Positions 4,809 through 37,995 of a stretch of DNA of 56,224 nt are shown here, piece after piece. The position numbers and the translations under genes are program-made. This stretch comes from a virus (Duplodnaviria; Caudoviricetes). The stretch lies in IMG/VR virus record IMGVR_UViG_3300020045_004866, positions 1 to 56,224 of that record; one strand, written 5' to 3'. The notes under the pieces were generated by a model. That model had not been told where the DNA came from and did not search any database. It saw only the letters and a program-made list of their open reading frames with translations. The stretch's first letter is position 1. The number at the start of each line of letters is the position of its first letter.

Positions 4809-5543
4809 ATGAACGATAAAACAAAAGCAATACTGCAAATTACCGCGCCAGATGGGCAAGAGTTTGTCGAGAAAGGCGCGATAATTAATCAAACAAAAGG
4901 GCTAAACGGGATTTGCGTTGAGCTTTATATTCCGACAAAATCCATTCAAAACCCTGTTGACACCAATTCTATTAAAGCCCAAATCGCACAAGCCGAAGCC
5001 GATAAAGAGGCTTATCCTGATTTTTGTTGGGAGCTGTGGCAATATGAAGTTTATGACGGTAAAAGAGGGCTAGATTGGGACACCGTGATAGATAATAATC
5101 ATATTTTTAGTAACACTTTAATATACCGCCAACACCCGCACCGCGAAAACATTATCCAGTTTAACAAGTGCAGCGAGGCGGATAAAAATCGTTGGCAATG
5201 GCGCGTAAATGACGGGTGTAACTGGACTAATTGCAGTGATTCAAAAGTCGGTGAATTTTATCCGATTTGGGAAAATGGAATTTACTACCGCCTGCGTCCA
5301 CGCGCTTGCTTCATTACCATGCAAGACGGCACAAAGATGGAATATCCTGAGCCAGTTCGGGAGGCTTTGGAAGTTGGGCAGGATTATTGTTGCGTGACGT
5401 GGTCGGGTGTGATTTGTACATATTGGAATGATGATGACTCGGATTATGAAAGATTAAGACAAGGCTCTATTCATTTAACCGAAGAAGCTGCGCAACAACA
5501 CCGGTCAGCACTGCGAACCATGAACGCGCAGGTGGCAGCGTGA
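4809..5543 (+). CDS. Hypothetical protein with duplicated WQ..W..YR domain
   Basis: 244-aa ORF, AGGTGA SD. Confidence 0.8.
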   Translation: MNDKTKAILQITAPDGQEFVEKGAIINQTKGLNGICVELYIPTKSIQNPVDTNSIKAQIAQAEADKEAYPDFCWELWQYEVYDGKRGLDWDTVIDNNHIFSNTLIYRQHPHRENIIQFNKCSEADKNRWQWRVNDGCNWTNCSDSKVGEFYPIWENGIYYRLRPRACFITMQDGTKMEYPEPVREALEVGQDYCCVTWSGVICTYWNDDDSDYERLRQGSIHLTEEAAQQHRSALRTMNAQVAA

Positions 5544-5681
5544 AAAGTTTACTAGAAAGACTGCTATCACACACGATGAAACCAGAGGAAATTACTGGCG
5601 ATATTGAAACAAAGAATGCCAGAGTTGAGGAGCTTGTCCGCTGGATAGCAAGATACAATTAGGGGCATAAAATAACACCCA

Positions 5682-5705
5682 AGCCCCGTAGTCGCGGGGC
5701 GTAAC
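5682..5705 (+). repeat. 24-bp intergenic hairpin repeat, copy 2
   Basis: AGCCCCGTAGTCGCGGGGCGTAAC; GCCCCG/CGGGGC stem. Confidence 0.85.
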
Positions 5706-5718
5706 TTTGGAGATTGAA

Positions 5719-5850
5719 ATGAAAAAGAATTTTTCACTTTTATCAAGACGAGAGTTTTTTAACGCGGGATATTGGGTTCGTGTGGGTAATAAACACATCG
5801 GGAGGTCGTACAAGCGTTTTTTAGAAAATTTAGCAGATAAACGGATATGA
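5719..5850 (+). CDS. Small basic protein (43 aa)
   Basis: GGAG SD; ATGA overlap with next gene. Confidence 0.5.
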   Translation: MKKNFSLLSRREFFNAGYWVRVGNKHIGRSYKRFLENLADKRI

Positions 5851-6176
5851 AAACAAAAATTGAAGATTTAACAGACGAACAGCTTGACTATTTTTGTGCC
5901 ATTGCGCAGGGGTGGAATCAAAAATACGGGTACTGGTTTAATGAAAAAAATAAAAGAGTCTCTGCTTTTTTTGGCTACCACCCAACAACCAACGCCACGC
6001 AGTGCTATGAGATTATGGAGCGCGAGAAGATGGAAGTTAAGCAGAAAGGTGGTCGTTGGTTTGCGAAAATAGACAATGAAGCCGTGTTTTCATCAGCATT
6101 TGGCGCAACCGCAAAACAAGCAATAATACGCTGTTTTGTTAAAAGTAAGTTGGGCGAGGAGGTTGATTGTGGATAG
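5847..6176 (+). CDS. NinX-family / DUF2591-like phage protein
   Basis: LTDEQLDYFCAIAQG..YHPTTN..IMERE..AIIRCFVKSKLGEEV pattern. Confidence 0.75.
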   Translation: MKTKIEDLTDEQLDYFCAIAQGWNQKYGYWFNEKNKRVSAFFGYHPTTNATQCYEIMEREKMEVKQKGGRWFAKIDNEAVFSSAFGATAKQAIIRCFVKSKLGEEVDCG

Positions 6177-6561
6177 ACCATTTTCAGAGAAAGATATGGT
6201 AGTTTCAAAATTATACGGCGTTGGGATCATTACATTTATGAATGCTAAAAATGGTAATTTTGTAGCTGACTTTAAACTAGCAAAAAATGTTTATATACCA
6301 AGCGGGGAAGTGAGCCACCCGATTACATTTGAATGGGTACTTGATATTATAACAATCCGCAAGCCCCGCAAAGGAGCAAAAGAGGCGCGGGATATTGTGG
6401 CAATGTTGGCGAATGCCAGAAGGCATGGACTAAATGACTTATTAATAATTTGCGGGAAGGATAAAAAGCTAAGATGCAAATTTAAAAGGATATTTGAGAT
6501 GGGAATGTCGCATATCCTATATGTAAAAGCAAAATCAATGTTAGGGGCATCAAATGAGTAA
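6169..6561 (+). CDS. Hypothetical protein
   Basis: GTG at 6169 after GAGGAGG SD. Confidence 0.65.
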   Translation: MDRPFSEKDMVVSKLYGVGIITFMNAKNGNFVADFKLAKNVYIPSGEVSHPITFEWVLDIITIRKPRKGAKEARDIVAMLANARRHGLNDLLIICGKDKKLRCKFKRIFEMGMSHILYVKAKSMLGASNE

Positions 6562-6922
6562 AGAATGGCACGAAAATATACCTGAAAATGGGGTGCTGTG
6601 TTACGCGCCTAACGGAATTATGACAAATATAATCTTAGTCACGTCAGACGGGAGAGCGTGGAACGGAGATTCAAATTGGTTTAATGTTGACCAATTAATA
6701 CCACTAACCGCCGAAGAATGGTGGGATTTTGCGCCTTGGCAGGATATGGATAAGCCAGTCACAGCAAACAATAACTTTTTAGTTATGACTAGACATAGAG
6801 AGATTGTTACTGTTTATCTATCAAAGCATGGCGCGATTCGACGAGAGCATTCTGGAAGCGAGATTTTAATAAAAGATTGTTTGAAATGGCTACCACTGCC
6901 AACAAACAAGGGTGATTTATGA
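6554..6922 (+). CDS. Hypothetical protein, DUF551-like C-terminus
   Basis: WQDMDKP....KWLPLP. Confidence 0.65.
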   Translation: MSKEWHENIPENGVLCYAPNGIMTNIILVTSDGRAWNGDSNWFNVDQLIPLTAEEWWDFAPWQDMDKPVTANNNFLVMTRHREIVTVYLSKHGAIRREHSGSEILIKDCLKWLPLPTNKGDL

Positions 6923-7116
6923 GCAATAAAGACTTAGTTTTAAATAAATACCCGCTAGCAAAATACCTCAAAGATGAGCCGTGCCATCAAAAAGATATTC
7001 CGTATTTTATGATTATGACAAGTAGTGATGATGGTGGTATTGATGTTCTTGGCTATTCTTGCGAGTCAGAAGATGATGCTTGGAGCGACGCATGGATCAA
7101 TATAGGTGATTTATGA
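6919..7116 (+). CDS. Hypothetical protein
   Basis: ATGA-coupled; EDDAWSDAW motif. Confidence 0.65.
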   Translation: MSNKDLVLNKYPLAKYLKDEPCHQKDIPYFMIMTSSDDGGIDVLGYSCESEDDAWSDAWINIGDL

Positions 7117-7415: not shown

Positions 7416-9899
7416 TTAAGCTGCCTCGTACATCATTGTGATGCTGATTGTATCGCCTGTCGCCCAAGTATGCGGACTTGTTGCTGTTATTGTTGTCGGC
7501 ACTCCTGACAATACTGACAATAACTGCGCACCTGCCGTACTCGCCCACCATGCCGCCAGCTCATAGCGTGTTGATGACGTTTTTAATCGCCCAGCAACTG
7601 ATATTTCAAATTGCGAACTTGGGGTTGCTGCGCTGGTAACTGGAAAGGTGATTGACGGCGCAGTACCCATGCTTGACGTGCTGCCAAGTGTCACAAAAAC
7701 CCGCACAAAAACAATCTTTCTAATCGGGTCATAATTGTATTTTGCTGATTGTGTGCCGTTTCCGATGGTGAAGTTAGTCCACGACGGCGTAAAACTTACC
7801 CACGCCGACTGGTCTGCACCGCCATTAACCACTGCTAAAACACCAGTCACGCCTGTTGTTAAATTTAGCCCTACCGCGTTAGTTAAATTAATTGCGCTTG
7901 GTGTGCCTAAAGCTGGTGTAACTAAAGTACAGTTTGCAGCAAAAACATTCGCGCCGGTTCCAGTTTCGTCCGTCAACGCCGCTGCTAATTGCGCAGACGT
8001 TGTGCCATTCGCGGTTAGTGTTGTTACGCCGATAGTATTTGCCGTCACTACTCCAGAAATCGGGTATCCAGTACAGTTGGTTAGGTTTCCGCTCTGTGGA
8101 GTTCCTAATATTGGCGTTGTTAAATTAGGACTTGTCGATAAAACTACGCTACCACTCCCAGTTGATGTGGTTGTGTTTGTACCGCCATTCAAAACAGGTA
8201 AAATTCCAGTCATTTGCGTGGATAGGTTGACCCCCGTTAAGTTGCCGCCTAGCGTCAAATTTCCGTTGCTTGTGACATTGCCATCCAAAGTTATCCCATT
8301 AACCGTACCATTTCCCTGTACATACGTCACATTACTATTAGCCGAAGTCTGGTTTATTTTGGACAGCATGGAATCAGTGACATAATTCTTGTCGGTAGAT
8401 GCTGTAATGTTAGCCGTGGTTAAACTAACCGTCCCAACTTGACCATTTACACTGATAATCTTGTCGGTGTAATCTTCTTTTAGCCAGTTACCCGCATACG
8501 TTGTAGCTGAAGCATTATCGAGTATTGACAATAATCTGTCTGTTGCAACAAAATCAATCCCATCAACGGTACCATCAACAGTCACAGAATACACATACCC
8601 AGCTTCTGTGCTTGCTGGAAAAGCCCCAGTGCTTGCGTCCCATCCGCCGATGTACCGCATTGCAGAATTTAAAGCGTTAACATCAGTTGTTAAGTTCGTA
8701 ACATTACCCTGTAAAGTCGTAATATTTGAGACTGCTCCTGCCCCTAACGCGCCATCGAAAGCTGTACCAGTGGTATTACCAACTGTTATGTTTGAAGTTC
8801 CTTTTTCAAAAAACGCATTCCAGTCAGAAGAAGTAAGTAATCCGCCTACGCTAGTATTTGCTGTTGGTATCGTACTATTCGATACGCTTGTTGCAAGCCC
8901 TTTACCATTGAATACAATTGTTGGAACTATTGTTGCATTGCCAAACGATCCGATATTGCTATTTACAGTCGCTAAGGTAGCCGTTATGTTCCCAGTGCCA
9001 GCTCCGGATATGTCGCCACTTAGGGTTATGGTTTGATCGCCCGTGTTTGTATTGCTGGTCTGATTCAATACCGTTAGCTTTGCATCGGTCACATAGTTTT
9101 TATCAGTCGATACAGTAACGTCGGCGGTAGTCGCATTACCTTTCAGCGCGGTTGTTCCTGTGCTGCCAAGTGTTAAATTACTCGTTCCCTTATTTTCCCA
9201 GTCCGTGAATTTACCCGATGCTATCTGACCATCTTGCGTAGCATTGGCATATTGCATAGCAAGAGACAAGTTGTTGTTAGTAACCGTTCCTGTAAAGCCT
9301 CCGCTATCAGTAAATCCAGCGATACCGCTAATATTCCCGTCTCCTGTGACAACCATATCCCCACTACCCAATATCGACACGCCGTTGATGGTCTTGATAT
9401 TGGTAGCTGAAACAAGCGTGGCTTGTTTGCTGTTTAAAGCCGCTTGTGTGGCATTGCTTATCGGTAACTCAAGCGGCGCGACATCGGTTACATTAGATAA
9501 TCCGATTTGTGATTTAGTTACGTTATGTGGGTTTGATGTGTTAGCAGTGTGGTTTTGCAGTGTCGCAATATTGCTTGTGGCATTGCCAATCTCAACAAAT
9601 TTAGCTGATGTTAGTTGCCCGTCTTGAGTGGCATTAGCGTATTGTAATGTCAGTGATAGATTGTTGTTGGCGACATTGCCCGTAAACCCTCCGCCGTTGG
9701 TAAAATTAACTATCCCAGTAAAATTGCCACTACTGCTTATGTTGGCAACAGCATCTTGCAAGGCTGTAATCTCAGTTGCCGCAGTCTGTAGTCCGTTTTT
9801 TATTGCTACCCTGCTATTTCTTTCGTCAGAAGCTGACATTCGAGTCCCGACAACTGGGGCAGTGGTATTTATTGCTGAAACATTGATATTGGAGGTCAT
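7416..9899 (-). CDS. Tail fibre / receptor-binding protein
   Basis: T/G/S/N-rich; NPHNVTKSQIGLSNV, ISVNGQVG, LPVLNGGT, TDETGTG fibre motifs; internal duplications; distinct C-terminal tip. Confidence 0.85.
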   Translation of the reverse strand: MTSNINVSAINTTAPVVGTRMSASDERNSRVAIKNGLQTAATEITALQDAVANISSSGNFTGIVNFTNGGGFTGNVANNNLSLTLQYANATQDGQLTSAKFVEIGNATSNIATLQNHTANTSNPHNVTKSQIGLSNVTDVAPLELPISNATQAALNSKQATLVSATNIKTINGVSILGSGDMVVTGDGNISGIAGFTDSGGFTGTVTNNNLSLAMQYANATQDGQIASGKFTDWENKGTSNLTLGSTGTTALKGNATTADVTVSTDKNYVTDAKLTVLNQTSNTNTGDQTITLSGDISGAGTGNITATLATVNSNIGSFGNATIVPTIVFNGKGLATSVSNSTIPTANTSVGGLLTSSDWNAFFEKGTSNITVGNTTGTAFDGALGAGAVSNITTLQGNVTNLTTDVNALNSAMRYIGGWDASTGAFPASTEAGYVYSVTVDGTVDGIDFVATDRLLSILDNASATTYAGNWLKEDYTDKIISVNGQVGTVSLTTANITASTDKNYVTDSMLSKINQTSANSNVTYVQGNGTVNGITLDGNVTSNGNLTLGGNLTGVNLSTQMTGILPVLNGGTNTTTSTGSGSVVLSTSPNLTTPILGTPQSGNLTNCTGYPISGVVTANTIGVTTLTANGTTSAQLAAALTDETGTGANVFAANCTLVTPALGTPSAINLTNAVGLNLTTGVTGVLAVVNGGADQSAWVSFTPSWTNFTIGNGTQSAKYNYDPIRKIVFVRVFVTLGSTSSMGTAPSITFPVTSAATPSSQFEISVAGRLKTSSTRYELAAWWASTAGAQLLSVLSGVPTTITATSPHTWATGDTISITMMYEAA

Positions 9900-12131: not shown

Positions 12132-15100
12132 TTAACTCTCAATTGCATGCACAGTTCTAAAAGCATAATCCATCTGCTTATTTCTCATTGCATCAGCCTG
12201 TTTGCGCAATGATTCAGCACGTTTTAAATGCCCTGCTTTCTCTGCCTTGGTAGCCGCCGCCATCTTGCCGCGTGTCGAACCCTCAAGCTTTTTCAGTTTA
12301 TCGCCAAGATTAGCCATCTTCTTTTCACTAGGCGATAAGGTATCGCCATTGCTTTCTCGCACATTCAATTCATTCATGCGATCACGCGCACGGTAATAAA
12401 GCCTTTGCTTAAGGCTATCATCGTTTGTTTGCAGCACATAGCGGTCAATTAAAGGGATAGACGTACTCAAGCCGCGCGATTTTTTAGCTGGGTTTTCAAC
12501 CGCCCATTTTAGAATCTCATTACCCGCACCTGCCCCGTAATCACGAATAAATTCACGCGCCTGTTCAGGGTAAAAATCAATGCCATTTTGTGCAAATACC
12601 TGAGCAATATCTTTGTAAATTTGTGGCGTATCGCGCCGTCCTTGCAACGCCTTAGCGGTATCTTGTCTTTCGTAACGCGAGTTAGTCAGTGGTGCGCCGA
12701 ATGAATTAACGTCTAACGCGATGTTAACTAAGGGCTTAGCCGCTTGAGGGCTAAATGTTTGCGCTAACCATACCATAGGATTTTTTAACATCGATGTTTC
12801 GGCAGGAGCAACAGGCATACCGGAACGCGCCCACAATGATGCTGATTCTGCTACCGCTTCACCTGCTGTCATATCGCCGCGCATGGTACGAATAGCATTA
12901 ACGCCATGACTCCACGCTAGTTGTTGCATACCAAAACCCACGGGTATTTTAAAGTACTGTCCATTTCCCATAGGAACAAGGATGTTTCGGTACAGGTTAA
13001 AGTTTCCCGCCTCATCCATTTTATTAACACCAATATCATCATCGTCATCGCCCGCGCTAAGCATGGCATACAGCATCATAGCCGCTACAGTATAAGCCGC
13101 AAATCTAGCCTGTCCGCGCCGTGTTGATAGCGTCATTGCCATTTGGTGTCCACCCGTGGCGATAGGCTGAGCAAACATATAAAGGGCGCGTAACGGACTC
13201 ATTACCTTGCCGCGCTTTCTAAAGTTCATGAGGTTTAATGCCGATGCTGCCGCGTCCTTATCGCTAACGCCATTGGTTACCAATGACTTATAAATAGAAA
13301 ATCCGCTTATCATTTCAAAGCTGTTATTCCATAGCTCAATCGCGTCCATTGCCTTATCGGTTATCGTGCCTGTCTTGCGTAGTTTTTCGGCAAGTGATTT
13401 GCTATCACCGCTTAGCATATCGCCATAAGTCGAGCTACCGCCCAAGGCTAAAAACTGCTTAAGCATAATCACATCTTGATTAGTGCTATCAACTGGGAAC
13501 GCTTTAGCTAGTGGTGTATTTTCGGCTAACACGCCCATCATGACGGGCTTTAACTGTATGAGTAGTTTTGCTGATTCACCGATGGCTTGATTGGCTACCT
13601 TGTTCATATCTAAATCTGCATAGCCCTGAATTTTTCGGGTGCGAATATTCTCGCTACGCTCTGCAACGTCACGCAACATATTAGTTGGCGCAAACAATGG
13701 CATTAGCTGAGTCACCATTCGCGCTTGAAAGCGGGTAAAGAACGCTATTGGCTTTAAAATACTTGGCACGTCTTCATTATTCACGCTGCGTAAGGCTTCC
13801 ATTGCGGCTTGGTTGTTGATGGTGTAAATCATGCCTTTACCGTCTTTGCGGACAATAATATCGTTTTCACTTGCTGGTATCATGCCTGTTTCTGGTCGGC
13901 GTTTAATATCGAACTCATCAAATACTGCTTGCTCGGCTTCTTTCTGAGTCATGCCAGTAGCGACTTTATCAGCAATTAATGAATTGTAAGTATCGGTTAA
14001 GGCAGTCTTAAAATCATTCCAACCGTGATAACGCGCGGATTTTTCCAGTTGTTCAAAAGAAGCATCAATGCCATTTTGAGCAATAGAGCCTGTGCGTCCA
14101 CCTAGTTGTTTATCGCTGGCTTGGTTCACGCTACCCGTAGAAAAATAATCTTCCACGCTGTCATCGGTACGCGGGTCACCTGTCAATGGCACATAGATTT
14201 TTGACTTCGGAAACTTATCCGCCGTGGCTTTGCTGATTTTTCCGTCCTTAATATCGTTCTTCAGCTTCCACGCATTCATGTCATAAGTTGGATTTGCTAC
14301 CGCGTCCAGCATTGCACGAGGTATCTTGGCTTCAATATCTGCCATGAGCTTAGCGGCTGTGGCTTTATTAAACCCACCTGCCACACCAGCGTCGGTTTTT
14401 TGTTCGGTCGGGTCAATGATGTTCGGGTCGTTAATGGCGGCAATGCGTTTAGTTTGGTCGCTGGTTGTCTTAGCTAACTGCTTATTGAGTGCCTTTAATT
14501 CGTCTGGGTCTGTGGTTACAGCAATATCTGCATTAATTGTATCAATAGCATTTTGGTCTTTGGTCATTAGCCAGTCGTTAGCTTCTGCTGAATACCGCGC
14601 ACTCATCCAATAACCCGTTAAATCCTTGGCTGTTTTATAATCCATTTTGGTTTCTTTCACAATGTCGCGTATGCCATCGGCTATGGGTCTGCCAAACAGG
14701 TTCATTGCGTCTTTTTCGTAAGCGGCTTTCATGCCTAGTGCGCGGTCTGCCCCACTCAATAGTTTGCTGGCTTGCTCACTGTCAAACGTGTCTTGTACAA
14801 AACGTGCAAACGGTCTGGTGGAGTCGGTGAAAGTGGTAACAGCTTTGTCAAAATAATACTGCCAACCTAGTTTATCGGTGGGCTGTTTGCCAGTGTTTAT
14901 CATAGTATCTATGTCTGACAGGCTAGTGGTTCTGCGTGGTTTTCCTGTGAAAAAGTCAGTTGCCGCACTAGCCATTGAATACATAATGCCACTTGCATTG
15001 TCATCACTAAAGACGTTAGCCGATACTGCGCTATCACCATTCAAAATAGCATGGGATATTCTATGATGACCGTCAGATACATAATACTTGCCATCTTTTA

Positions 15101-18100
15101 GTATCAGGTTTACTGGCTCATCCTTATATTTCTTTGTGCTTTTTAAATTGTGGGTAGTTATATTTCTTTGGGTTGGCACAATATCTTTTATGCTTACTTG
15201 TTGCGATATTGTGTCGCCAGACTCAAAGGCATCATCGGCTTTTATCCGTAAATCCTGCGACACATCACCAACACCATTTGAGAATATATTTCCAGATGGT
15301 ATTTTTGGTAAAGTGTAGCGATTCTCTAATTCAAGTTGCTTTAGTGTTTTTGCACCACTGCCTGCATTAGCAGGTGTTGAGTTTGATCGCTTGCCATTGG
15401 GAGCGAGTAGCGGACTGGTTACAGTGTCTTTTTTGCTTGCCAATAAATTAGGGCTATCCGCGTAGTCGGGGTCGAATGCGGCGTTGACATTTCTTATCTT
15501 GCTTCCTTTTGGCGCAAAATAGCTTGTTCCATGCTCATCATTCATAGATACAATGTCATAACCCAATTGTTTAGCTAGTCTCCCTCTGTCATTCTGAAAT
15601 TGCCAGCTAGCTTCCCCCAAGTCATCAACTCCAGTTAATTCAAGTATTTCACCTTCATCAGAATAATCCCAAGGATTAAAATTATCCTCAACTATTGCAG
15701 GAAACAATATTTCATTAATTTGGTCTTCTGTAGCATCTGGATAGCGGTCTTTTATTAAATCAGTTAATTGCTCTCTATCGTGCTTATATTCAAAATCACC
15801 ATCAAATACTTTATCTGTTGAGATAAATTCATTTAACACTCCAGTACCATGAGATGACGCATTATCCTCACTTTCACTCAAAAACAAGCCATCAAAAATA
15901 TTTCCAAAGCCTATTTTCTTTATAATCTCTGAGCTTCCATGATACCAAACCTTATCAACATCAAACCCCATAGCCTTAGCTCTAGCCATACGCGCCTTTT
16001 GCGACATATCCAAGCCCTTAGCAACAGCTCGTAGCCATTCCTCTGCTTCGCCTGTGCTACTACCCTCATAGCCTTTGGCTTTAGCAAGCTTAATTGCATC
16101 ACCACTACGCCCAACAGAATCAAACAGTAAATCATTCGGCGCAACTCTCAATGCACTAATCGCCATACCCACTAAATCACTCTCATTAAGTGCGGTCACT
16201 TTTCTAAACCACTCAGTACGTTGCACAGGGGGCAGTGCTTTACCGATAGCGCGTAGTTTGCTTCTGAACCAGTTTAGGAATTTTTGAACTAGGGTAAGGC
16301 GTGGATGGTTCTCAACAAGGTACGCCAATACTTCTTCGGTAACGTGTTCAGGCTTGGTATTCGCCTCTTTAGCCCGTGCCAGTGCCTTTTTAATCGCTGT
16401 GCTGGAGTTAGCGGTAATCATGCTTTCGACTTCTGACAGAATTGCTTTGAAGTTTTTGTCGTCTTTGCCTAATTGCAGTGCGTGTACGCCTAACTCATGC
16501 GCGGCTAAGCCTAACAGGTCTTTGTTTTTGTCGATATTTTCAGCGACAAAGTAGGTGGTGTCGTTAGCTGGATTGTAGAATGCTTGGACTTTGCCGTTTT
16601 TGCTGTATTGTGCGTCAATATCCGATTCAAAGAAATAAGGCTTATTTTTATCAAAAGGTGTAAACGCAACTGCATCATCAACGTATATTTCTGCGCCAGC
16701 CGCTGCACTACCCAATAAGTCTTTTTTTATTCTAACTTTCAGTATTACTGGGTTTTTAATTCTGCCTGTAACGTGCTTCAAAGTTGAGTTTGCATTAGGC
16801 TCAAAAAAAGAACCCGCTTGAAATACTCCTGATTTTAATATCTTATTAGCATTGGCTTTGCTTGTTGCGTGATAAACAATAGCATTGCCGTCTTTATCTA
16901 TTTCATACGGTACGTTTTCTTCTTCATCGTAAATCTCTTGTTTTGCTGATTTTTTCTTTTTTAGTGTTGCTAGTAATTCTGGCAAATCATCACTATCTGC
17001 ATTGATTCCTACCCAATCCCTTTTAATGCCTAAATCATCTGTATTGAACCATTTTTCACCTTTCCCAGTATCAACGAGTATTCGGCTTATATCGTCATTG
17101 TAATCAAGTATTATGGGCTTAAAGCTAAACAACTCCCCGCCACTAATAACCCTATCAGCCTCCTCGTTACTAACCACCTTAACCTTGCCCGTAGCCATCA
17201 ACAACTTAGTCCACCCATGCCCGAACTGCTTATCAAGCTGTATGGTGAATGCTTTGGAGAATGAATCTTTGGTGTGGGAGTTGGTTGGCTTATCGCTTCG
17301 TGATTCAAATACGCCTGTTCTATCTTGTAACTCAGGGTAATCAGCAAGGACTTTATCAGGAACGGATAACCCCTCTTTTAGCGCATCATTAACTAATGCC
17401 CTATGCAGAAAGTCCACTGAGAAGTTGGCATGGTCAAAATCCTTAAACGTAGCTTTTCCACCCTGTTTAGGATTTGAAGTAGGCTTATGCCCTTCTTTCT
17501 TCCCTCTTGCATAGTCGATAGCGTGTTCTATTTCATGACGAAGTATTGATGGCGTGGACAAATCAACGCCACCGCCTTTTTGATTCCAGTCCTTTAATTC
17601 CTGTTCTGAGAATTTTGGGGTAAGCCATATTGTTTTTATAATAGCCACTACCTCCCCAGTATCAGTATTTGTCCCAGTTTTTACGTCAAACGACGATCTT
17701 GTTGGGAACGGCGAAGGCAGTATTTGAATATCAACATCACCTAATTCATCCGGATAAAGCCCTTGGTAGTACTCAAATATCTTTTTTGGGTCATTGCTAC
17801 CAGCCTTTTCAATAATTCTTTTATCAAGGTCTGGGTTTGTTGCGACCCTTTGTAGTGGGTCGGGGTATAACTCCCTAAACTCAGATTGAGTTAGCAAGTG
17901 TGGCTGTTTGTTACTGGGTAGCGCAGCGTTGGTTGGCTTGGTGGATTGTGATGGTTTGATTTCAGTGCTTTCTAAAAATTCCTTGCCTTTTTCTTTGCTA
18001 ATTGGCTGTAATTTCCCCGCTATTGGGTAAAGTATATCCAGAACTGAGCCTAGCGATTCCTTGTTAAAAGTACCTACCATTTCATTGCCGCGTTTTACAA

Positions 18101-21100
18101 AGTTTTCACCTTCTACGACGCTAGTTAGACGTGGATTAAGGAAGTATTGACCGCCTTGCGCTTTTGATGCTGGAACACGAATAGAATAATTACCCTGCTG
18201 AGGAATAATCCTTAGCTGATTATCCGCCGACCTAATACCAAAAGCGGGGTCAATAGTCGAGTTGCCAATAAATGACTGAGCAATACGCGCTGTTTGAAAT
18301 ACAACAGGCTTATCATCCAGTGCTTTTGCAAGGTCAAACTTTTTGGGCATTAAGATACCCTGCTTAGTGTCGCCTTGGTTGTTTGTGTAATTGACTATTT
18401 GCCCTGATTTATCGAACGCATACGCGGCAAGCATATTGCCAGTTAAGATGGTTCTTTCTTCTCTGGATTCTGAACTACCTTCTTCAATCGCTTTTTTGAT
18501 GTCCTGTGATGTTGGTTCTATAGACCACTTCCCTTCCGTGACGCTTCCAGCGGTAATTCTTGATAATGGAATTGTAAAGTTTTTGGCGGCATCAGCAACA
18601 TAAACGGTTAGCTTCCAGTTTCCCATTGCAAAGAAATTCTTTGCATCGCCTTTGCGCTCTAAGTTTCCAACAAAACCTAGGTATTGTCCGCCTGTAGGAG
18701 AGAATATTAAAACTCCTTTAGTCGGGCTAAAATCATTAAAAAACTTTATGATTTTAGTAGACCATGCGTCAAGCATATCCGTTGCGCCGCGCTTCTGTTT
18801 TATGTCTTGGTCATCCTCAGTAGGCATGGCATTTATTTCATCCATTCGTGCTTTATAGGCTTCATGAACTTTGGCTATCTGAATAGCTCGCCATTCACGC
18901 AAACTAGCACTATCGGTAATGCCAGTTTTACCCTTAATCAATCCCAATATCTGCTCTATAGTGTACGGCTTACCAAGTCGTTTAGCGTCCACTATTTCAG
19001 CATTAACGCCCTCGGCAAAAGGCGAATCACTTCCGCTAGTTGGCTTGACAACTTGTGTAGTCGATACGGTTTTTGCGTCCAACGCCATTGCTTTTGCTTC
19101 AAGCTGGTTTTGTCCAGTTTTGTTAAGCATATCAATGTATTCGTCATAAGCGTCTTCAAGCATCGTGTAGACTTTTTCTTGGTCTGCTAATGATAGGACT
19201 GGAATACGCCCAGTAACCCTGCGCATTGCGCCATCAGTATCAAAACCTGTAGTGTCTTTTTCTTTTAATGGGACACCAAGCAACGCATGAATATCGCGGT
19301 TATCGTTCATGACCGCTGCGGCAACCTCGTCGCCATAATCGTTCATAAAGTCTGGTACGTCTTTAGCCTTTACTGCTGAATCCTTACCTGCGGTTGTGGC
19401 TGCGTTAAGCCCTGCCATTTTCTTAGCAAGGATTGCCGAAGGTCTTTTTTCTGCGGGAATGTTCGCCGTTAATTGCCCGTAACTTGGTAGATTAGATTGC
19501 CCAGTACGATTAACTCGCCCTAACATTTGCATGTGCGTATCAATGTTCAATTCAGGCTGGGCGATAATCATGTGTCGCTTTCGGGTGTCAGTTCCGACTT
19601 TAGGACTTGAATGTAACGATAACCCTGTTGCGCCCGACTGATTCAAGATAACAGCATCAATCATGCCGTTATTGAAGTCACTGATAGTTTTGCGTTTGCC
19701 CGCTGAGTTTTTCTGACTGGCAGGGCGTTTTTTGTAGACGGGAATGCTTTCAGAATAATCAATAATTGAATTTCTTCCTGTTATCTCGCCTGTCTTGTAA
19801 CCTGCTTCATGCAGTGCGTTATGAATGGCATCAATAGGAGATACTGGATATTTGTCAAAACCGTACCGGTCTATTTTATCCATCACGTCTTTATAGAATT
19901 GGGCGGCTACCACTCCTAATTCCTCATCATTTAAGTAACGCGATTCTTTTTTACCATACATATCACCTTCAATGACACGGCGTGACTTGCTCAAATATCG
20001 CGCCAACAAATCGCCAAAGTGTAGACCAATAGCATCACCTACATTAAGCCCCGCATCTTCTGCGTATTCATCAATCGCTGAACCCATTGTATTTGATAGC
20101 GTGATAACAGGTTTTTCTCCACGCTTTAACGCGGCAAGTGCCTCATCAATAGCGGGTTGAACCTTTAGCATCAACAGCATTTGCCCAATCATGTTGTGCA
20201 TAACACTGGTAAAATTTGAGGACGATGCGCCAGCCGCGCCAGTAGACCTGTCGCTGGACATTTTACGCGCATCAGCTTTAAGCTCTTTATCAAGACCTTT
20301 TATGCTCGAAGCCTTTAAAACATCAAACTGCATGATGTCACGCATAATCTCAGAAGCGCGTTCGGCAAACTTCCTATCAACATCAACAAAAACGGTATCA
20401 TAAACAATACCATCAAAAGACTTTTCTCGGCGTATGTATTGCCCTGCTTGGGCAAGCATAGACGCTACGGCTTGCTGCAATGGAACGCCACCTGCTTGTA
20501 ATGAGTCTTTTAATTGTTGCGGGTCAGCAATCAATCCCATATCGGTTTTGGAGTACAAATCCAGAACATCAGGACGTTTTGCGTAGGTTGCCGATGAATA
20601 GAATACGCCTTGTGAATTTTGCACTAGTTGACGGGTAAATCCAGCTCTGCCGCCTTTTGTGCCTTCCTCGACTGTTGCACCACTACCGCCATTAGCCGCG
20701 CCTTTGCGTGAGGCAACACTTGTTCCACCCGCATTATGGCTTTCATCCAGTATCAGCAATGCACCTTTTGATACAGCTTCAATAAAATCCATTCTATCGG
20801 TTTGTGCGCCCTTGATAGTTTGCATTTGGCTGTAAGTGGTAAAAACAGCATCATAACCAGATAATTTACCGTCATACACCATTTGCGCCATTTCTTTTGC
20901 TTTTTGGGTATCGCCTACTTTTGCAAAAATAGCATCACTGGGTATTTTTGGTGCGGGGAGGTTGTTTTCTTTTGCGTTGGAATTTTCAATATCCCACTCT
21001 AACGCGGCTTTATTTAATGGGATAACGCCATCACTGCCGCTGTTGGTAGCAAATGGCATAACACTACCCATACCAATATCATTCAGGTCTCGAATCATAT

Positions 21101-24100
21101 CACTGTAAAGGTTAGGCTTTTCAGTGACGAAAATAGGTGTGATATTATTCAGGATTGCGTAGCGAATCATCGCCGCGTTTACCCTGCCTTTGCCAACGCC
21201 CGTCTGATCGCCGATGATAAAGCCCTTGCCATTGATGATATTGTCTAAGGCTAAGGCGATTGCATCAACCTGTTCTGCGCTGAAGTACTTACCTAAATCA
21301 TCAGCTTCATAATTCAACTGACTTGCGACAAAGTTATCAACGCTGGTGTATTTATCGTTTAGTTTTGCAAGTGCGGAATTAATAGCCGATTGCATATTAA
21401 TAGGTACAAGCGTGCCGATAGAATTAACCCCGCTTGATGGCGTGTATTCTGCTTGAAAGGAGTTTTCTATTCGCTGTGGTGCAGTAGTGCGGGTATCACT
21501 GAGTTTAGTAGTTCCATTGGGTCTTGATACCGCGCTATTTCCGAGTTGGTTATTGGTTGCATCATTCCCGCGTACTGTTTCAGTATCGTTTCTAAGTCCA
21601 GACTGAAAGACATTATCCCCTCGTCCGTTCTTATCGGCGATTGAATCTCTTGATTGCTTAGCATTTGTTCCACTTGCAACATCGTTTGTTGTTGTTCCTG
21701 TGGTGGCTGTTTGTTTAGTAGCTTCTCTACTTTCCTGCAAAGAAACTCTATTGTCTTGGAGTTCATTTTTTAATTCCTCGGTTGATTGAATTACTCTAGG
21801 TAGACCTGCTGCTGGCAATAAAAGTTCAGATTTTCCTTTACCATTTATCACAATTACATCAACTGGATAACCTGCGCCCTGTTTAGCGTACAAATCACCT
21901 GATACAGTGAAATGGTCAACTACATTATATTCGTTGTACAGTGTGCCGTAAAATGCTCGTTTCGCCGCGCCATTATATTTATCTTCCCGTGCCGTATCTG
22001 ATAGGTTGGTCATAACACCACCAACAATTAACACCGCCTTGCCATCGTCTTTCATGGCTTTAAGTGCGTTAAATGCTATGGCGTGGTCTATTTCGTTGGT
22101 TTTATACCGTGAAGTGATAGGGAATGTTTGAGTATTGCCGTTTTCATCTTTTACTGTGCCGAAAGGAGGATTGGCGATAACCACATCACTGTCTGCATTG
22201 CCAAATCCATAATTAGCCGCGTTGTTTGTGGTTACTGTGAATCCTTGTGACTCTAACGCCTTTGCTCTGCCTTTGTTTAACTCATTAACAATTGCGTTAT
22301 CGGGATTAACAGCAATTAATAGCGCACCATTACCCGCTGTTGGTTCGACTACGGAGGTGTTACTGTCAATTCCAGCGCGTACCGATGCAACATAAGCCAG
22401 TGCTAATGGTGTTGAGTAGGCTTGTTCTGCAATGCTTGTGCTGGTTCTAACATTCAATGACGGCATTTGTTCGGCTAAAGCACTAAGCGCGTCAAAGGTA
22501 TTTTCTTTGCTCATGCCTTTAGCGACAATCTGTCTTGCGGCAATAACGCCTGCCAGTTCAATTGCTTCGTCGGCTTGTTTAGCTTGAACTGTACCCGCTT
22601 GAATTGGTGTGTCACTTAATTCTTTTCGTGCTTGAACAATGGTTTTAAGCGAATCACCGTTTAGTAGTTTTTCTGAGAAAGCCGTAACATTGAAACCGTT
22701 TAAAATAATTGGTTTTGATATTTGTTTAGTGGCTTTATCGCCCAACAAACTATCCCCAACCATCAACAAAGCCGATAGTGCGGTTTCTTGTTCTTGGTTA
22801 AGTTCAATACCCAATAACTTAGCGATCGCATGAACAAACTGAGTCCATGCTGTTTTATCTTTGCCCATTTTAATATCGGCAAGCATCTTCTGGAATACTG
22901 GTTCAGTTAATCCGTAGGTGATAAGTTCGCGTAGGTTTTCAGTAGCTAATTCCGATACTTTCTTTAAATCGCCCGTTACGTTATTTTCCTTAATGTGCTT
23001 ATTAATCAAGTTGGCTATAAGTTTAAGTTGAGTACGCGCTACTTTTTCGTCTCTAGTTAGCGTGGATTCATCCGTGTTACCCATGATGGCGTTAATCTTT
23101 TCGCCAGTTACCGCGTGAATCAGCTCATGAATAAATCCTTTTTCAGTGGCACTTTCTTTTAACTTCGGAATGACTGCCAAATTAACTGAAACAGTTTTAG
23201 TATTGTAGTCATAGTTCATTACCCCCTCGGTGCCGCGCTTATTTTTTAGCGTATCGACAACGGATATGTTGATGCCATCTGGAAGCTGACCAATTAGCTT
23301 ATTGGCTAGAATTGGGTGTAGCGGGGTTGCACTATTAGCTATAATGTGCTCTAGGACTTCGTTTACGTTGCCACTAGCTATAAGTGAATGCAGTGTTTTC
23401 GTAGCTGGCTTAGATTGCTTGGCTTCTGGCTTAATTTTGTCTTTTCCCGCCAGATTAGAGTCGGTATTATCCGCAATCGGCTCAGACTTATCCTGTTTAG
23501 CGGGTTCGGATTTGGATTCAGTTTTAACACTGTCGAATTCGACAGAATTAGAATCGGCTTTAGGTTCTACAAGTAGGTCTTCAAGTGATTTAATCTCGCT
23601 CATACCAACAAAGTCCTTGCCACCTGCCGAAGCATACCCGCCTAACAAATGCTCAAGGGTAAATTTATCGGCTGTTTCTTTGTCGGCAAGCTCTCTAATC
23701 TGCTCCATTACATAGCTTGCGGTTTCTTTGAACTTAATAAAGCCCATTTTTGCGGCAATACGAAAAATCTTAGCCATGATAGGAACAAGTTTAGTTTCTT
23801 CTTCCTCGGTCATGTTCATCTTGCCACCAAGCAAAGATACAGCCTCGCCTATGGCTTGCCCCATTTGAGCCTTAAGATCTTCCATTTCGCTCAATGGTTT
23901 TTTGCTGCCTTGCTTGGCTACCTCGCTTTCAATAGGCTCAGCATCATAACCCTCATACTCGGTTTTATCCTGCGACTCCCAGACACCATTCTCATTCTTT
24001 GCCACTGGTACACTATCACCATCATCATTAACGGTGTGTGTAGGGTTAAATTGTGTAGCGGGTTCAGCGTTAGCATCACCCGCTTCATTTAGCACTTCGG

Positions 24101-27100
24101 TTTTGGTGGACGTTTTTTCGCCATTGTCACTTGCTCCTGTGGTTGATGGTGTTACCGCTTGCGTGTCGGTTTCTTGCGCGGCTTGTGACTTCACATAGTT
24201 AGTATGAGCATTAACCACGTCCTCATAAGTTGGACGGTTATTTATCACCTCCATAACATTATAAAGCTCATCTTTTGATATTTTTATCTTGCCATCCTTT
24301 GCATCTTTTAGCTTATCTTGTGCGTTTTCAATATCTTTCGCGTAATACCCTAAAAGCCTTTTATTCTCTATTACCCTTAAAGTTGCTTGGTTTGCACTTG
24401 GCTTTCCCGCACTTCCAAAGGTCTCCGCCCTTTGTGCATCCCTTTGTTTTTCCCACTCTTGCTTTGTTAGCTCATGAGGCTCTTTATGACTATTTTCTTG
24501 TGTTGTCGATTGCGCTGTATCTGTTGGTTTATTTGTTTTTGTATCATTGGTTAATGGGGTTTGATTTCTAATAACCAAGCCGCGTGACTTAGCATTGGAT
24601 ATGGCTTCGTTATGAGCTTCACGGGAATTATTAGATGGTTGCAATGGTGCTCTAAATTCCTCAATCGTTAGCCCGTGGTCTGGAATTTCGGTTTTTGCAC
24701 TTAACTTTTCACCATTGTTTAACGCCGTAACAATGCGGTTATCGTATTCATCCTGTGCTTGTCTGGTAAATTCCGTTGTGTCTCGATGTTGCTCGGTAGC
24801 AGTTCTAGTTTTTTTACCAGCCTTTCTGTTTTCGGTATTTACCCACGCCTTAACGAAAGCATCCTTATTGTCTTTAGGTGTTTTACCGCTAGGTTTTACC
24901 GCTGTTGGCTGCGTAGAAACCGTGGCATCACCGGGCGGTACACTCGGTACTTCTGCCGCTTGTTGTGCGCTAGATGTCTTATTCTGTCCTGTACGAACCT
25001 TGGAAACCTTAGTTGGCTCGTCCTGCGTAACAGTTGGTGCTTGAGTGGGTTCTGCGGGTATGTTTGCATTTACAACGTTCTCAACTTCATTATGAATTTC
25101 AGGAATAGTTTTGTCGGCAACATCAACGCCAACAGCCGGCGCGATACGAAGTAAATCATCGGCGTGTTTTGGGCTAAGTGTTTTTGTTTCTATTGCTTTG
25201 TCGATTTCTGCCAGTGTAACCGCTGCTTGTTGTACGTCTTCTGGCTTTGGCGCGGGTAATAGTTTTTGATTTCCGATTCTGTCACGGACAACCTCACCAT
25301 TAATTGCATCACTGCCTAATAACTTCTGATTTACTGGATTGCCAACTTCTTTGTTATCGACTAATTCGCCTGTTAATGTTGGGCTATCTAGCTGTGCATT
25401 TTGTGCAGCTTGACCATTTAGAGCATTACCTATAATTGGTTGCAATGTTGGTGCAGTATCAAGATTAACTGGGCTTGGTTGTGCGTCTTGTGCCGTGTCG
25501 TACTGGCTTGCTTGTTGTGTTGGCTGTTCAGTAGTATTGGCATTATTGCTGCCACCCGCGCCACCTGCATTACCAGAATCACCGCCTGTATTAGGAGTGC
25601 TGGGTTTAGGTGTAGGCTGCGCCATTGCTCCAGCCGCTAAAGCCGCTTGCAAAATATCACCACGCGCTCTGGCATCGGCAAACGACTTAGCCTGTGCCGC
25701 TGCTTTCGCTGCATTGGCATTATCAATAATAAGCTGGTTAGCTTGATCTGTTTCGAGCGATTGACGGGTAGCTTTATCATAAGCTCTACCAGCCCCGCCG
25801 CCAACACCACCACTAAGCAAACCCATTGCTCCGCCGCTTGCCGCTTGTTCGACAACGCCTTTCATTGGATCAACGTCAGTGTAAGGTTGCATTGCTACGT
25901 TTTGGGCATATTGACCACTCGCGCCTTGTATTGTTTCCTCTGAAAATTCTTTTCCACCGCCCGTTAATATCCCGCCGCCAACGGCTTTTAATGTTGGAGC
26001 AACCCCGCTTGCAATTGCATTGGTACCCGCTTTACCAGCTAAGCGATTAAATAGCGCACCCTCTAGTCCACCGCCTGTCACCAATGACGCGCCTGCACCA
26101 ACTAACGCCGCTGGTGCAAACGCGTCACTACCCGTCATTTCCGCCGTTATGCGTACCGCTTCATCAAAACCTTTTTCATTCGCCAGTTGTGCGAATTGTG
26201 GGTTTTTCATTAACTGGTCTGGGTTATTTTTAGCTAACCCTAAAAACTCATCACGCGCCGCATTGGACGCGCCCGCACCCTCAAGGGTAGCATTGCCTAA
26301 ACCCATGATTGCCGCGTTTTGAACTTTATCGGCTATTGCTGCTTTTGCTTTGAGTGCTTCGGCTTCGGCTGCTTTGGTCGCGCTAAACGCTCTTGCTTTT
26401 GTTGCAGTGTCGATTAAGTTATCAGCTTCTTTAGACGCTTTTGTTGCTAGTTTTGGCAATCCATCAGCTGCTAATCTTTCGCCATTGGCTGCCGCTATAT
26501 TCGCGCTGGATATTCGCGCTTCTGCTTTAGCCGCTTCTTGAGCCGCTCTTGAGGTTGCGTTGGCTGCCTTGGCTGTCAATTCCTCAGCCTTGCCAACACC
26601 AGCTAAGCCCTCTGCAACTTTTGCGCCTTTCGATAAAGCCGCCACTGCCATAAACTGAGGGATAGACTCAATCAATGATGGTGATGTGCCGCGTGGGTTT
26701 TCAATAGTCGCGCCGAATGCTTTGCCAGCTTTTTGACCAATACTAAGCGACTCATCGCCCATGACTGCCTCAAGGTCTGTGCCAAGTTTAGCCTGTGCGT
26801 CCTGTGTGCCTTGTGAATAAGGCATTGTTTCTTCTGCCCAATCAGCAAGTGGGCGAGTCGTGTAATCCCTTACCATGCCGACTCCTGAATTTACAGAGTT
26901 TTCAATCGCACCGCCTTGACCAGCATTCTCGTTTCCCACTGCTAAGTCGGCAATTTTTGCATAACCACCTAACGCGGTTTGTGCGGTTGATTCTAAGGCG
27001 TCTGGCAAGCCGATTAAACCACGCGCCACACCTTTTGGCAGGTCTAACGCGCCGCTTGCTGTGTTGGCTAATTGTGGCGGCTGACTAGGTTGTAAAAACT

Positions 27101-29141: not shown

Positions 29142-29158
29142 AATTTTTATCTAAAAAC

Positions 29159-29228
29159 ACTGTGCAGTAGGATTCGAACCTACAACTTTGGTTATGAAGC
29201 AACATTCAGCCATTTGAACTATACACAG
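29159..29228 (-). pseudogene. Degenerate tRNA-like element, anticodon CAT
   Basis: 7-bp acceptor CTGTGTA/TGCACAG, D arm, perfect T arm GTAGG-TTCGAAT-CCTAC; anticodon stem only 3 bp; no CCA. Confidence 0.7.
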
Positions 29229-29277
29229 TTTACTGCATCCAACATACCCAATCCGCAGTCTGTCCCGCTGTCAAAAC

Positions 29278-29353
29278 TGGTGCGCCCCACTGGGTTCGAA
29301 CCAGTAACCCCAGACTTATGAGGTCTGCGCTCTACCGATTGAGCTAAAGGCGC
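29278..29353 (-). tRNA. tRNA with CAT anticodon (likely Ile2, alternatively Met)
   Basis: 76-nt cloverleaf, loop CTCATAA, GGTTCGAACCC, encoded CCA; C4:G69 and C5:G68 as in Ile2. Confidence 0.92.
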
Positions 29354-32637: not shown

Positions 32638-32841
32638 TTAGTTATTCAATGCCCAGTTCTTTGCTAGTTCAGCAAGCCAAAAAGCGGTCTTTATATCCAT
32701 TTTTGAAGACCTGATAAATAAATCGCCATCTTTATATCTACCAACAATAAGCACTTCGTCTAGTTCGACTTGAAGTGAACTATTTAAGGCTTGCTCAACT
32801 GTTAAGCTTGTTGATGCTGGTAACTTAACTACATTTGTCAC
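32638..32841 (-). CDS. Hypothetical protein
   Basis: MTNVVKLP..LDEVLIVG small phage protein pattern. Confidence 0.6.
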   Translation of the reverse strand: MTNVVKLPASTSLTVEQALNSSLQVELDEVLIVGRYKDGDLFIRSSKMDIKTAFWLAELAKNWALNN

Positions 32842-37611: not shown

Positions 37612-37995
37612 CTACACTAAAGTAGTATTGGTATTAACGGAATAAGTAATGCTATCAGTATCACCATGCGTCATGACAATGCGCCAGTTTTTAGGGATAA
37701 AGTCATTAGCCGTTAAGTTTGTCGCGTCCGTTGCGTTTGGAAATACCCGTAAAACCGTTGTACCAGTGCCAGTAATCGCCGCGCCAACAAGAATATCATA
37801 ATAATTTCCGCTTGCGTCCTTGCCTTGAATCTTTGGCACTACGCTAGGGGTAGCGGTCACTGCTGACACAACAATAGATATATGAACACCATTGTAATCA
37901 ACATTAACTTGGTCGTCACTGGTAACTGTTGCAGTTCTTGCCGCAGATGCTAAAACAACAAATGAGCCAGCATTATTTAATAATTGTGTGTACAT
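37612..37995 (-). CDS. Putative virion protein
   Basis: LASAARTAT..IQGKD.SG.YYDIL. Confidence 0.55.
   Translation of the reverse strand: MYTQLLNNAGSFVVLASAARTATVTSDDQVNVDYNGVHISIVVSAVTATPSVVPKIQGKDASGNYYDILVGAAITGTGTTVLRVFPNATDATNLTANDFIPKNWRIVMTHGDTDSITYSVNTNTTLV

Follow-up and report, generated by a model that had tools for sequence, protein, structure and literature searches.

Soluble N-glycosyltransferases (NGTs) glycosylate the sequon N-X(not P)-S/T in the bacterial cytoplasm from UDP-hexose. Fibrous adhesins are hyperglycosylated by such enzymes at many close sites, and the enzymes act semi-processively on multi-site substrates (as described in excerpts of PMC3012730, PMC6318927, PMC10507012 and bioRxiv 10.1101/2020.09.10.281741). 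Here, we analyse a tail fibre gene located at positions 7416..9899, on the minus strand, of an entire IMG/VR virus record (IMGVR_UViG_3300020045_004866; 56,224 bp, completeness estimate 94%), the whole of which is called the window in what follows. Like the HMW1/HMW2 and AtaC-type adhesins of the HMW1C/NGT systems (CAZy GT41), as far as the excerpts describe them, its 827-aa product is a long fibrous extracellular attachment protein with many closely spaced N-X(not P)-S/T sequons. The modification by HMW1C/NGT is moreover cytoplasmic, and the cytoplasm is the sole compartment that a tailed-phage fibre sees before lysis. Unlike these secreted bacterial adhesins, the fibre is a phage virion protein. 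Unlike in the HMW1C/NGT systems, no GT41 gene was found, either in the window or in the 10 related phage records that were searched.

Glycosylation of virion structural proteins within the host cell is possible in tailed phages. In mycobacteriophages, the glycans are reportedly O-linked, carried by the capsid and tail-tube subunits and made by phage-encoded glycosyltransferases. These glycosylated virions, for which the excerpted text speaks of “extensive glycosylation” (PMC12582341, citing Freeman et al. 2023, Cell Host Microbe), constitute a precedent. The present fibre differs from them by an N-linked type of sequon, by the location of the sequons on the fibre shaft and by the lack of any phage glycosyltransferase among those searched for. 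A second comparison is given by the glycan shields of enveloped animal viruses, in which sequons shift from site to site at a constantly high density and stay away from the receptor-binding surface. The sequons of this fibre likewise turn over at a kept density and spare the head. The attachment proteins of enveloped viruses pass through the endoplasmic reticulum and the Golgi and use a membrane oligosaccharyltransferase, whereas the assembly of a tailed phage takes place in the cytoplasm of a bacterium.

The fibre contains 83 Asn, of which 47 lie in N-X(not P)-S/T sequons (38 NXT and 9 NXS), and N-P-S/T does not occur. Ser and Thr are enriched after Asn at offset +2 alone (47/83 = 0.57), the fraction being 0.17-0.32 at the nine remaining offsets within five residues on either side of the Asn, for an S+T background of 0.267; the reverse pattern S/T-X-N is present 23 times. 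None of 20,000 whole-protein shuffles reached 47 sequons (mean 21.7, standard deviation 3.8, maximum 39; z-score about 6.6), the mean and maximum of 5,000 shuffles inside 30-aa blocks were 21.5 and 39, and the reversed fibre sequence holds 22 sequons. Sequons follow each other every few residues in runs such as GNVTSNGNLTLGGNLTGVNLS (residues 540-560). The last Asn is residue 722, and the final 105 aa are free of Asn. The T/N-rich virion protein encoded at 32841-34148 has only 5 of its 33 Asn in sequons, which is no excess, and among the 72 open reading frames (ORFs) called in the window, none besides the fibre shows a comparable enrichment. The first-pass annotation of this DNA had reported the same counts (47 of 83 Asn, no Pro at X, 23 reverse patterns), which proved exact on recount. 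Its view that the excess is directional and not compositional is borne out by the +2 offset and by the shuffles, and what it said of the sequon-dense runs, of the last ~100 aa without Asn and of the protein at 32841-34148 was correct. The fibre thus displays the acceptor sites expected from a substrate of a cytoplasmic N-glycosyltransferase, with sequons that are in excess of chance and Asn-specific.

Such an excess could also be a by-product of composition, mutation bias, duplication or a DNA motif, for instance through AT-driven drift from Thr to Asn or through the targeting of AAY codons by a diversity-generating retroelement. The fibre is indeed rich in Thr, Asn and Ser (16.8%, 10.0% and 9.9%, respectively), and it contains internal repeats. 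In addition, Asn accounts for 10.2% of the residues in the sequon-rich lineage described below versus 6.3% in other members of the family, and this surplus lies almost entirely in sequons. However, shuffles that keep the global or local composition never attain 47. After masking the later copies of the internal repeats (167 residues), 35 of 62 Asn are still in sequons, for a shuffle mean of 16.5 (z 5.5, maximum 32 in 5,000 shuffles). Drift predicts T-X-N to be as frequent as N-X-T, but the counts are 23 and 47. Low-GC members of the family (L038, L041 and L043; GC 0.39-0.41) are not enriched either (z 0.9-1.5). Finally, the 47 sequons are encoded by 42 distinct 9-nt words, and the usage of Asn and Thr codons is the same within and outside sequons; the sequon is therefore not a DNA motif. 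Word diversity, repeat masking and shuffles thus led us to reject a DNA motif, a repeat artefact and composition, respectively, and a by-product of any of these kinds, effectively refuted by the controls, is extremely improbable. The target of a diversity-generating retroelement was also considered and rejected: no reverse transcriptase was found among the Pfam matches of 56 ORFs of the window, and the Asn-rich part of the protein is the shaft, not the Asn-free last 105 aa.

We then looked at the distribution of sequons in the fibre family, which has no Pfam model and is characterised by the repeat ...SPTLVTPxLGTPxSGxLTNxTGLP.... This family is very large, with 790 homologues at E<=0.001 among the scored candidates and 16,236 representatives at 50% identity (E<=0.001). 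Over the 120 best matches, the median z is 1.5. The 20 closest ones (P0001-P0017, P0020, P0025 and P0048) have 46-64% of their Asn in sequons, with z between 4.2 and 8.6. Outside these 20 rich fibres, only 4 out of 100 exceed a z of 3 (P0043, 4.1; P0075, 3.7; P0079, 3.5; P0120, 3.1). For 135 further representatives at 50% identity, the median z is 0.69 and the median fraction of Asn in sequons is 0.30. Five of them have z>3, namely three close relatives of the query (P0194, P0297 and P0254) together with P0308 and P0301 (distant, z 3.2), and the only one with z>4 is a close relative of the query. Among 80 ORFs of viral contigs chosen by the motif GNLTNC, 4 have z>4; the three that were inspected carry motifs of the rich lineage, and the fourth is near-identical in counts to one of them.

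Nearly all these proteins share a core module of 121 aa, which is homologous to the widespread repeat given above and corresponds to residues 570-690 of the query (7830..8192, minus strand). The rich group has 5-12 sequons per segment in this module (6.8 per 100 aa, 18 segments), versus mostly 2 in the rest of the family (1.9 per 100 aa, 99 segments); the query itself has 8, and its lineage is further set apart by an Asn-specific excess. In a tree of the core module, all 19 rich rows are on one side of a single branch, whose support in the Shimodaira-Hasegawa-like approximate likelihood ratio test (SH-aLRT) is 96, or 85 without the 16 sequon columns. Judging from these sequences, sequon richness is a trait of one lineage of about 20 close relatives within a very large family. 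In other fibre lineages, two viral contigs (L049 and L125; GC 38% and 54%) encode fibres in which, close to the C-terminal part, Asn-Ala-Thr is repeated 4 to 7 times in tandem, giving pure sequon arrays.

The position of the sequons along the protein was then compared with its predicted architecture. The fibre ORF has no match in Pfam, no sequence relative in the PDB and only weak matches in PHROG (tail collar fiber protein, E 1e-5; minor tail protein, E 0.003). These annotated relatives and the position of the gene at the end of the virion-gene block both identify it as a tail fibre, and the gene is the distal tail fibre gene of an uncultured SU10-like aquatic podophage. The long start (MTSNINVS...) is backed by the first 20 residues, which are kept in P0004, P0005 and P0010. 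An AlphaFold2 model of the monomer has a mean pLDDT (predicted local distance difference test) of 53.9 and is poor overall. The fibre likely consists of an N-terminal anchor (aa 1-56), a long modular shaft of trimer type (aa 57-691) and a receptor-binding head (aa 692-827). The anchor (9732..9899, minus strand) is predicted, with low confidence, to contain a long helix at residues 26-56 and has 3 of its 6 Asn in sequons. The shaft (7827..9731, minus strand), modular and with internal repeats, has 42 of 73 (6.6 sequons per 100 aa). The predicted C-terminal beta-sandwich head (7419..7826, minus strand), likely the receptor-binding domain, has 4 Asn with 2 in sequons. The pLDDT of the head is 70-83 over residues 701-750 and 50-64 over residues 751-810. 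In VIA-align, the head matches the Dettilon tailspike (6f7k; Z 8.4, root-mean-square deviation 3.7, 121 residues aligned) and gp15 of the Listeria phage PSA (6r5w; Z 7.3, root-mean-square deviation 2.9, 101 residues aligned), middling scores of a level that is common for unrelated beta-sandwiches. Lower-ranked matches include the heads of a lactococcal receptor-binding protein, the reovirus sigma1 and the adenovirus knob. The earlier description of the protein as a tail fibre with a receptor-binding tip agrees with the PHROG tail collar fiber match and with these middling alignments of the predicted head. By predicted secondary structure, again in a low-confidence model, sequons comprise 6 of 13 Asn in helices, 7 of 10 in strands and 34 of 60 in coil. 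The 20 rich fibres have several head types, and together they have 861 of 1567 shaft Asn in sequons (6.1 per 100 aa) versus 45 of 143 in their last 130 aa (1.7 per 100 aa). Whatever the type of head, it is only the shaft of these 20 fibres that is enriched.

The substitution pattern in the family bears on a structural explanation, according to which the sequons are an unmodified motif whose likeness to an acceptor site is coincidental. G-N-phi-T caps at the turn-to-strand transition, or inter-chain pairs of hydrogen-bonded Asn and Thr, would stabilise or solubilise the trimeric fibre. One core-module sequon fits this proposal: N608 (NCT) is the only one conserved in the sequon-poor group, being kept in 82 of 100 distant homologues, so that some N-X-T are structural. 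At the other seven sites, a sequon is present in 0-7 of about 100 poor homologues. The wider family (about 100 sequences) has G (58) or A (24) at site 575, T (79) at site 592 with V at +2 (78), T (72) at site 605, T (65) at site 631 with P at +2 (65), S (86) at site 656, T (67) at site 671 and P (80) at site 679. From the family residues at these sites and at +2, five of the seven sequons arose by one substitution to Asn before an existing Thr, and the other two required a substitution at each of the two positions. About 100 homologues have the same module without these Asn, which argues that the fold does not require them. A beta-helix with a buried Asn ladder is contradicted indirectly: ladder Asn would be conserved among homologues of the same fold, but for 7 of the 8 sequon Asn of the core module, 58-86 of about 100 homologues have T, S, G, A or P instead.

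The comparison of Asn with Asp points in the same direction. In the 20 rich fibres, Ser or Thr is found at +2 of 909 out of 1710 Asn (0.53) versus 174 out of 654 Asp (0.27), the background being 0.258. The 100 other homologues make no such distinction: the enrichment is mild, at 0.35 for Asn and 0.36 for Asp over a background of 0.288, as a structural Asx-turn preference is expected to produce. This mild, family-wide excess speaks for the structural explanation, but in the rich lineage Asp, the same Asx-turn former, is not enriched. Likewise, T-X-N would place the same side chains on the same strand face, but it is not enriched in the query. Pro occupies X in 3 of the 909 sequons of the rich fibres for 22.7 expected, and at +2 Thr is enriched 2.4 times and Ser 1.4 times. 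With the specificity for Asn, the rich fibres thus show all three hallmarks of the sequon.

Within the rich lineage, aligned cells show Ser or Thr at +2 in 427 of 456 cases (0.94) where the sequon Asn is kept and in 102 of 177 (0.58) where it is lost. Ser or Thr at +2 therefore tracks the presence of Asn; the first-pass annotation had suggested a test of this relation. The Ser or Thr of sequons is also conserved more often (532 of 644 cells) than other Ser or Thr (1540 of 2386 cells). The sequon positions turn over at constant density: P0048, for example, has 53 sequons (z 7.1), of which 13 are at sites of the query. This shift of positions at kept density also argues against a structural motif, as does the presence of sequons in predicted coiled-coil-like helices.

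The rich fibres are found on differing phage backbones of 56-60 kb and 95 kb, and on fragments. One of them belongs to a complete sister phage of 60,483 bp (G002), whose structural proteins are 80-97% identical to those of the window; sequons comprise 48 of the 75 Asn of its fibre (z 8.6). A second sequon-rich protein was identified in this phage, an orphan of 217 aa in the head-tail (virion) module (G002:43907-44560, minus strand, the same as L008:3907-4560, minus strand), in which 14 of the 23 Asn belong to sequons (z 4.9). It does not resemble the fibre significantly, and neither 5.8 billion clusters nor the phage records contain a homologue of it. The same saturation in an unrelated protein again argues against an unmodified structural motif. 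By synteny, the slot of the orphan is occupied in the window by an unrelated ORF of 127 aa in the head-tail module (37612..37995, minus strand), with 3 of 11 Asn in sequons. On other backbones, the fibre has 57 of 114 Asn in sequons in G006 (94,892 bp, 39% GC), 38 of 80 in G007, 22 of 46 in G008, 23 of 45 in G001 and 18 of 32 in G003. In each of these five records, the fibre alone stands out, the median z of the other ORFs being about 0. Whatever the backbone, rich fibres are accompanied by a NinX-like early cassette and an endolysin, and no glycosyltransferase is among the co-occurring genes. The same cassette adjoins the fibre gene in G002, G006 and G001. G006 (L029-L033) has an SU10-type portal and adaptor and also encodes PhoH, a ferritin-like protein, RdgC, DnaB, a GmrSD N-terminal domain and an IS605 OrfB/TnpB-like protein.

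The statistics show that it is the polar tripeptide Asn-X(not Pro)-Thr/Ser as such that is under selection; the sequons are spread over a fibrous shaft, spare the head, are specific to Asn and are renewed at shifting positions. The statistics are silent on what reads this tripeptide. The reader could be a ligand at the host surface, a chaperone of the phage or of the host, or a different modification directed at Asn or Thr, the shaft then being a multivalent array of peptide motifs. N-X(not P)-S/T is not known to have a reader besides the N-glycosylation enzymes, which counts against this explanation, and the confinement to the shaft with sparing of the head argues against a role in receptor recognition. 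We consider such a different reader improbable. Glycosylation of the shaft on Asn in the host cytoplasm is the best reading of these data, one that we hold at close to, but below, an even chance as regards the use of the motif, the enzyme and the benefit. It is put first because the soluble NGT family is the known reader of the motif in the bacterial cytoplasm. In one lineage, the shaft, and not the head, has become saturated with Asn-X(not Pro)-Thr/Ser, the canonical N-glycosylation acceptor. According to this reading, a soluble N-glycosyltransferase dependent on sugar nucleotides would modify the shaft in the cytoplasm during or after its synthesis. This enzyme, probably host-encoded, could be an NGT/HMW1C-like enzyme of the host or an unrecognised one. 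The outcome would be a glycan-coated shaft with a bare receptor-binding head, and the coat might favour solubility, folding, shielding from proteases or predators, or adhesion.

Several results weigh against this proposal. The enrichment is a single evolutionary episode with many site gains, and the cell counts are not phylogenetically independent. Within the lineage, the sequon Asn is kept in 456 of 633 cells, barely above the non-sequon Asn (343 of 505). X is L, V or I in 56% of the sequons of the rich fibres, and G precedes the Asn in 26%. A G-N-phi-T turn-to-strand motif fits these preferences. Beta-strand preferences alone could explain the exclusion of Pro and the predominance of Thr over Ser, a beta-branched Thr and a lack of Pro being expected in strands. 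No glycosyltransferase was found either. PF13844 (GT41) is absent from all 11 phage records (G000-G010, the window being searched in six frames), so that none of them encodes a recognisable HMW1C-like enzyme of this family, and PF00535 (GT2) and PF00534 (GT1) are absent from the 5 phage records searched for them. The Pfam matches of 56 window ORFs (>=70 aa) and of the giant protein described below comprise 21 families without any glycosyltransferase, in agreement with the first-pass annotation, which had recognised none in the window. No glycosyltransferase was present among the 25 listed of the 48 Pfam families matched in G006 and G002, so that a glycosyltransferase with a weak match may have escaped notice there. 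As for the hosts, these phages look aquatic or environmental and not animal-associated, and the excerpted text of PMC3012730 names known NGTs only for animal-associated Gram-negative bacteria. The fibre of the Mannheimia phage PHL101 is not enriched (11 of 75 Asn in sequons, z 0.5); it is the sole control from an NGT-bearing host genus (n=1), Mannheimia being said to carry an HMW1C homologue (excerpts of PMC3012730).

PHROG scans revealed no glycosyltransferase. The lack of such an enzyme in the searched phage records is compatible both with an unmodified structural motif and with a different reader of the tripeptide. As the trait is found in a single lineage, it could also be an idiosyncratic structural solution. 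Considering both the residue preferences and the Asn-specific, shifting pattern, an unmodified structural motif is a serious though somewhat unlikely explanation. The proposal of the first-pass annotation that the shaft is selected for sequons and for modification by an NGT is upheld only in part. The homologues outside the lineage are without the excess and have T, S, G or P in place of the Asn, and the excess is Asn-specific. On the other side, no enzyme was found, nor was any tie to gammaproteobacteria or to HMW1C/NGT.

We also searched for the host of these phages. The fibre region had no megablast match in the phage records, and none of 185,579 species genomes yielded a related fibre in a search with the fibre alignment A1. 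With a degenerate DNA pattern for LGTPxSGNLTNC, we retrieved 7 contigs of metagenome-assembled genomes (MAGs). Six of them have an ORF with the motif that is not sequon-rich (z 0.2-2.3), and the seventh has no such ORF. A protein atlas search with TerL gave viral clusters only, the 65 matches of the endolysin indicated no host, and a metagenome scan yielded only short or distant contigs. A MAG contig of 104 kb labelled Nitrosarchaeum sp. (L041) carries a fibre-family ORF of >1,100 aa with 25 of 80 Asn in sequons (z 0.9). Its bin is that of an ammonia-oxidising archaeon, and the contig may represent a provirus or may have been binned wrongly.

Finally, we looked at the genomic setting of the fibre gene. 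It closes a late block on the minus strand that encodes TerL, an SU10-type portal and adaptor, a capsid protein, tail proteins and a polyvalent internal protein of 5,024 aa, and fibre homologues are present in 10 phage records. The closest cultured phages are the Roseobacter phages CRP-901/902 (43% identity for TerL and 36% for the portal), and phages of Pelagibacter and Caulobacter come next. The 5,024-aa protein is encoded immediately upstream of the fibre block by a single ORF (12132-27206, minus strand) with Sno-type helicase domains (AAA_34, Helicase_C_4) and LPD38. These domains make it a “large polyvalent protein”, probably an internal virion protein that is injected. Its homologue has 5,750 aa in G002 and is split over several ORFs in G006. 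On the other side of the fibre gene, small early-type genes on the plus strand (4809-7116), encoding a phrog_18768 protein, a NinX-like protein and two others, converge on the 3' end of the fibre gene; no function could be recognised for this cassette. Two adjacent tRNA-Met (CAT) genes (29158-29353, minus strand) are located between the virion block and a KilA-N gene. Among the window ORFs are also an F5/8 type C (discoidin) domain (Pfam, E 1.8e-7) and a holin with three transmembrane segments of the type found in gene transfer agents.

Even if the sequons are not used, this lineage is a clean natural experiment, since the sequon density of the same module is either about 2 or about 7 per 100 aa. 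Because the module exists in rich and poor forms, the question is directly testable with matched modules. Full-text searches of the literature revealed no report of an N-glycosylated fibre of a tailed phage or of the action of an NGT on phage proteins. For this reason, an Asn-glycosylated fibre, if true, may be the first N-linked glycoprotein of a tailed phage. It is a possibility that we put forward tentatively that a phage lineage of uncultured aquatic bacteria makes Asn-glycosylated fibres, a host NGT or an unrecognised phage one decorating about 40-60 sequons per subunit and producing a “glycan shield” that turns over on the shaft and leaves the head bare. If true, this would extend N-linked protein glycosylation to the virions of tailed phages. 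It would also point to a cytoplasmic N-glycosylation system in an uncultured environmental host, well beyond animal-associated bacteria, and would reveal a natural glycan coat on a phage, with a bearing on how phages remain stable, recognise their hosts and can be engineered.

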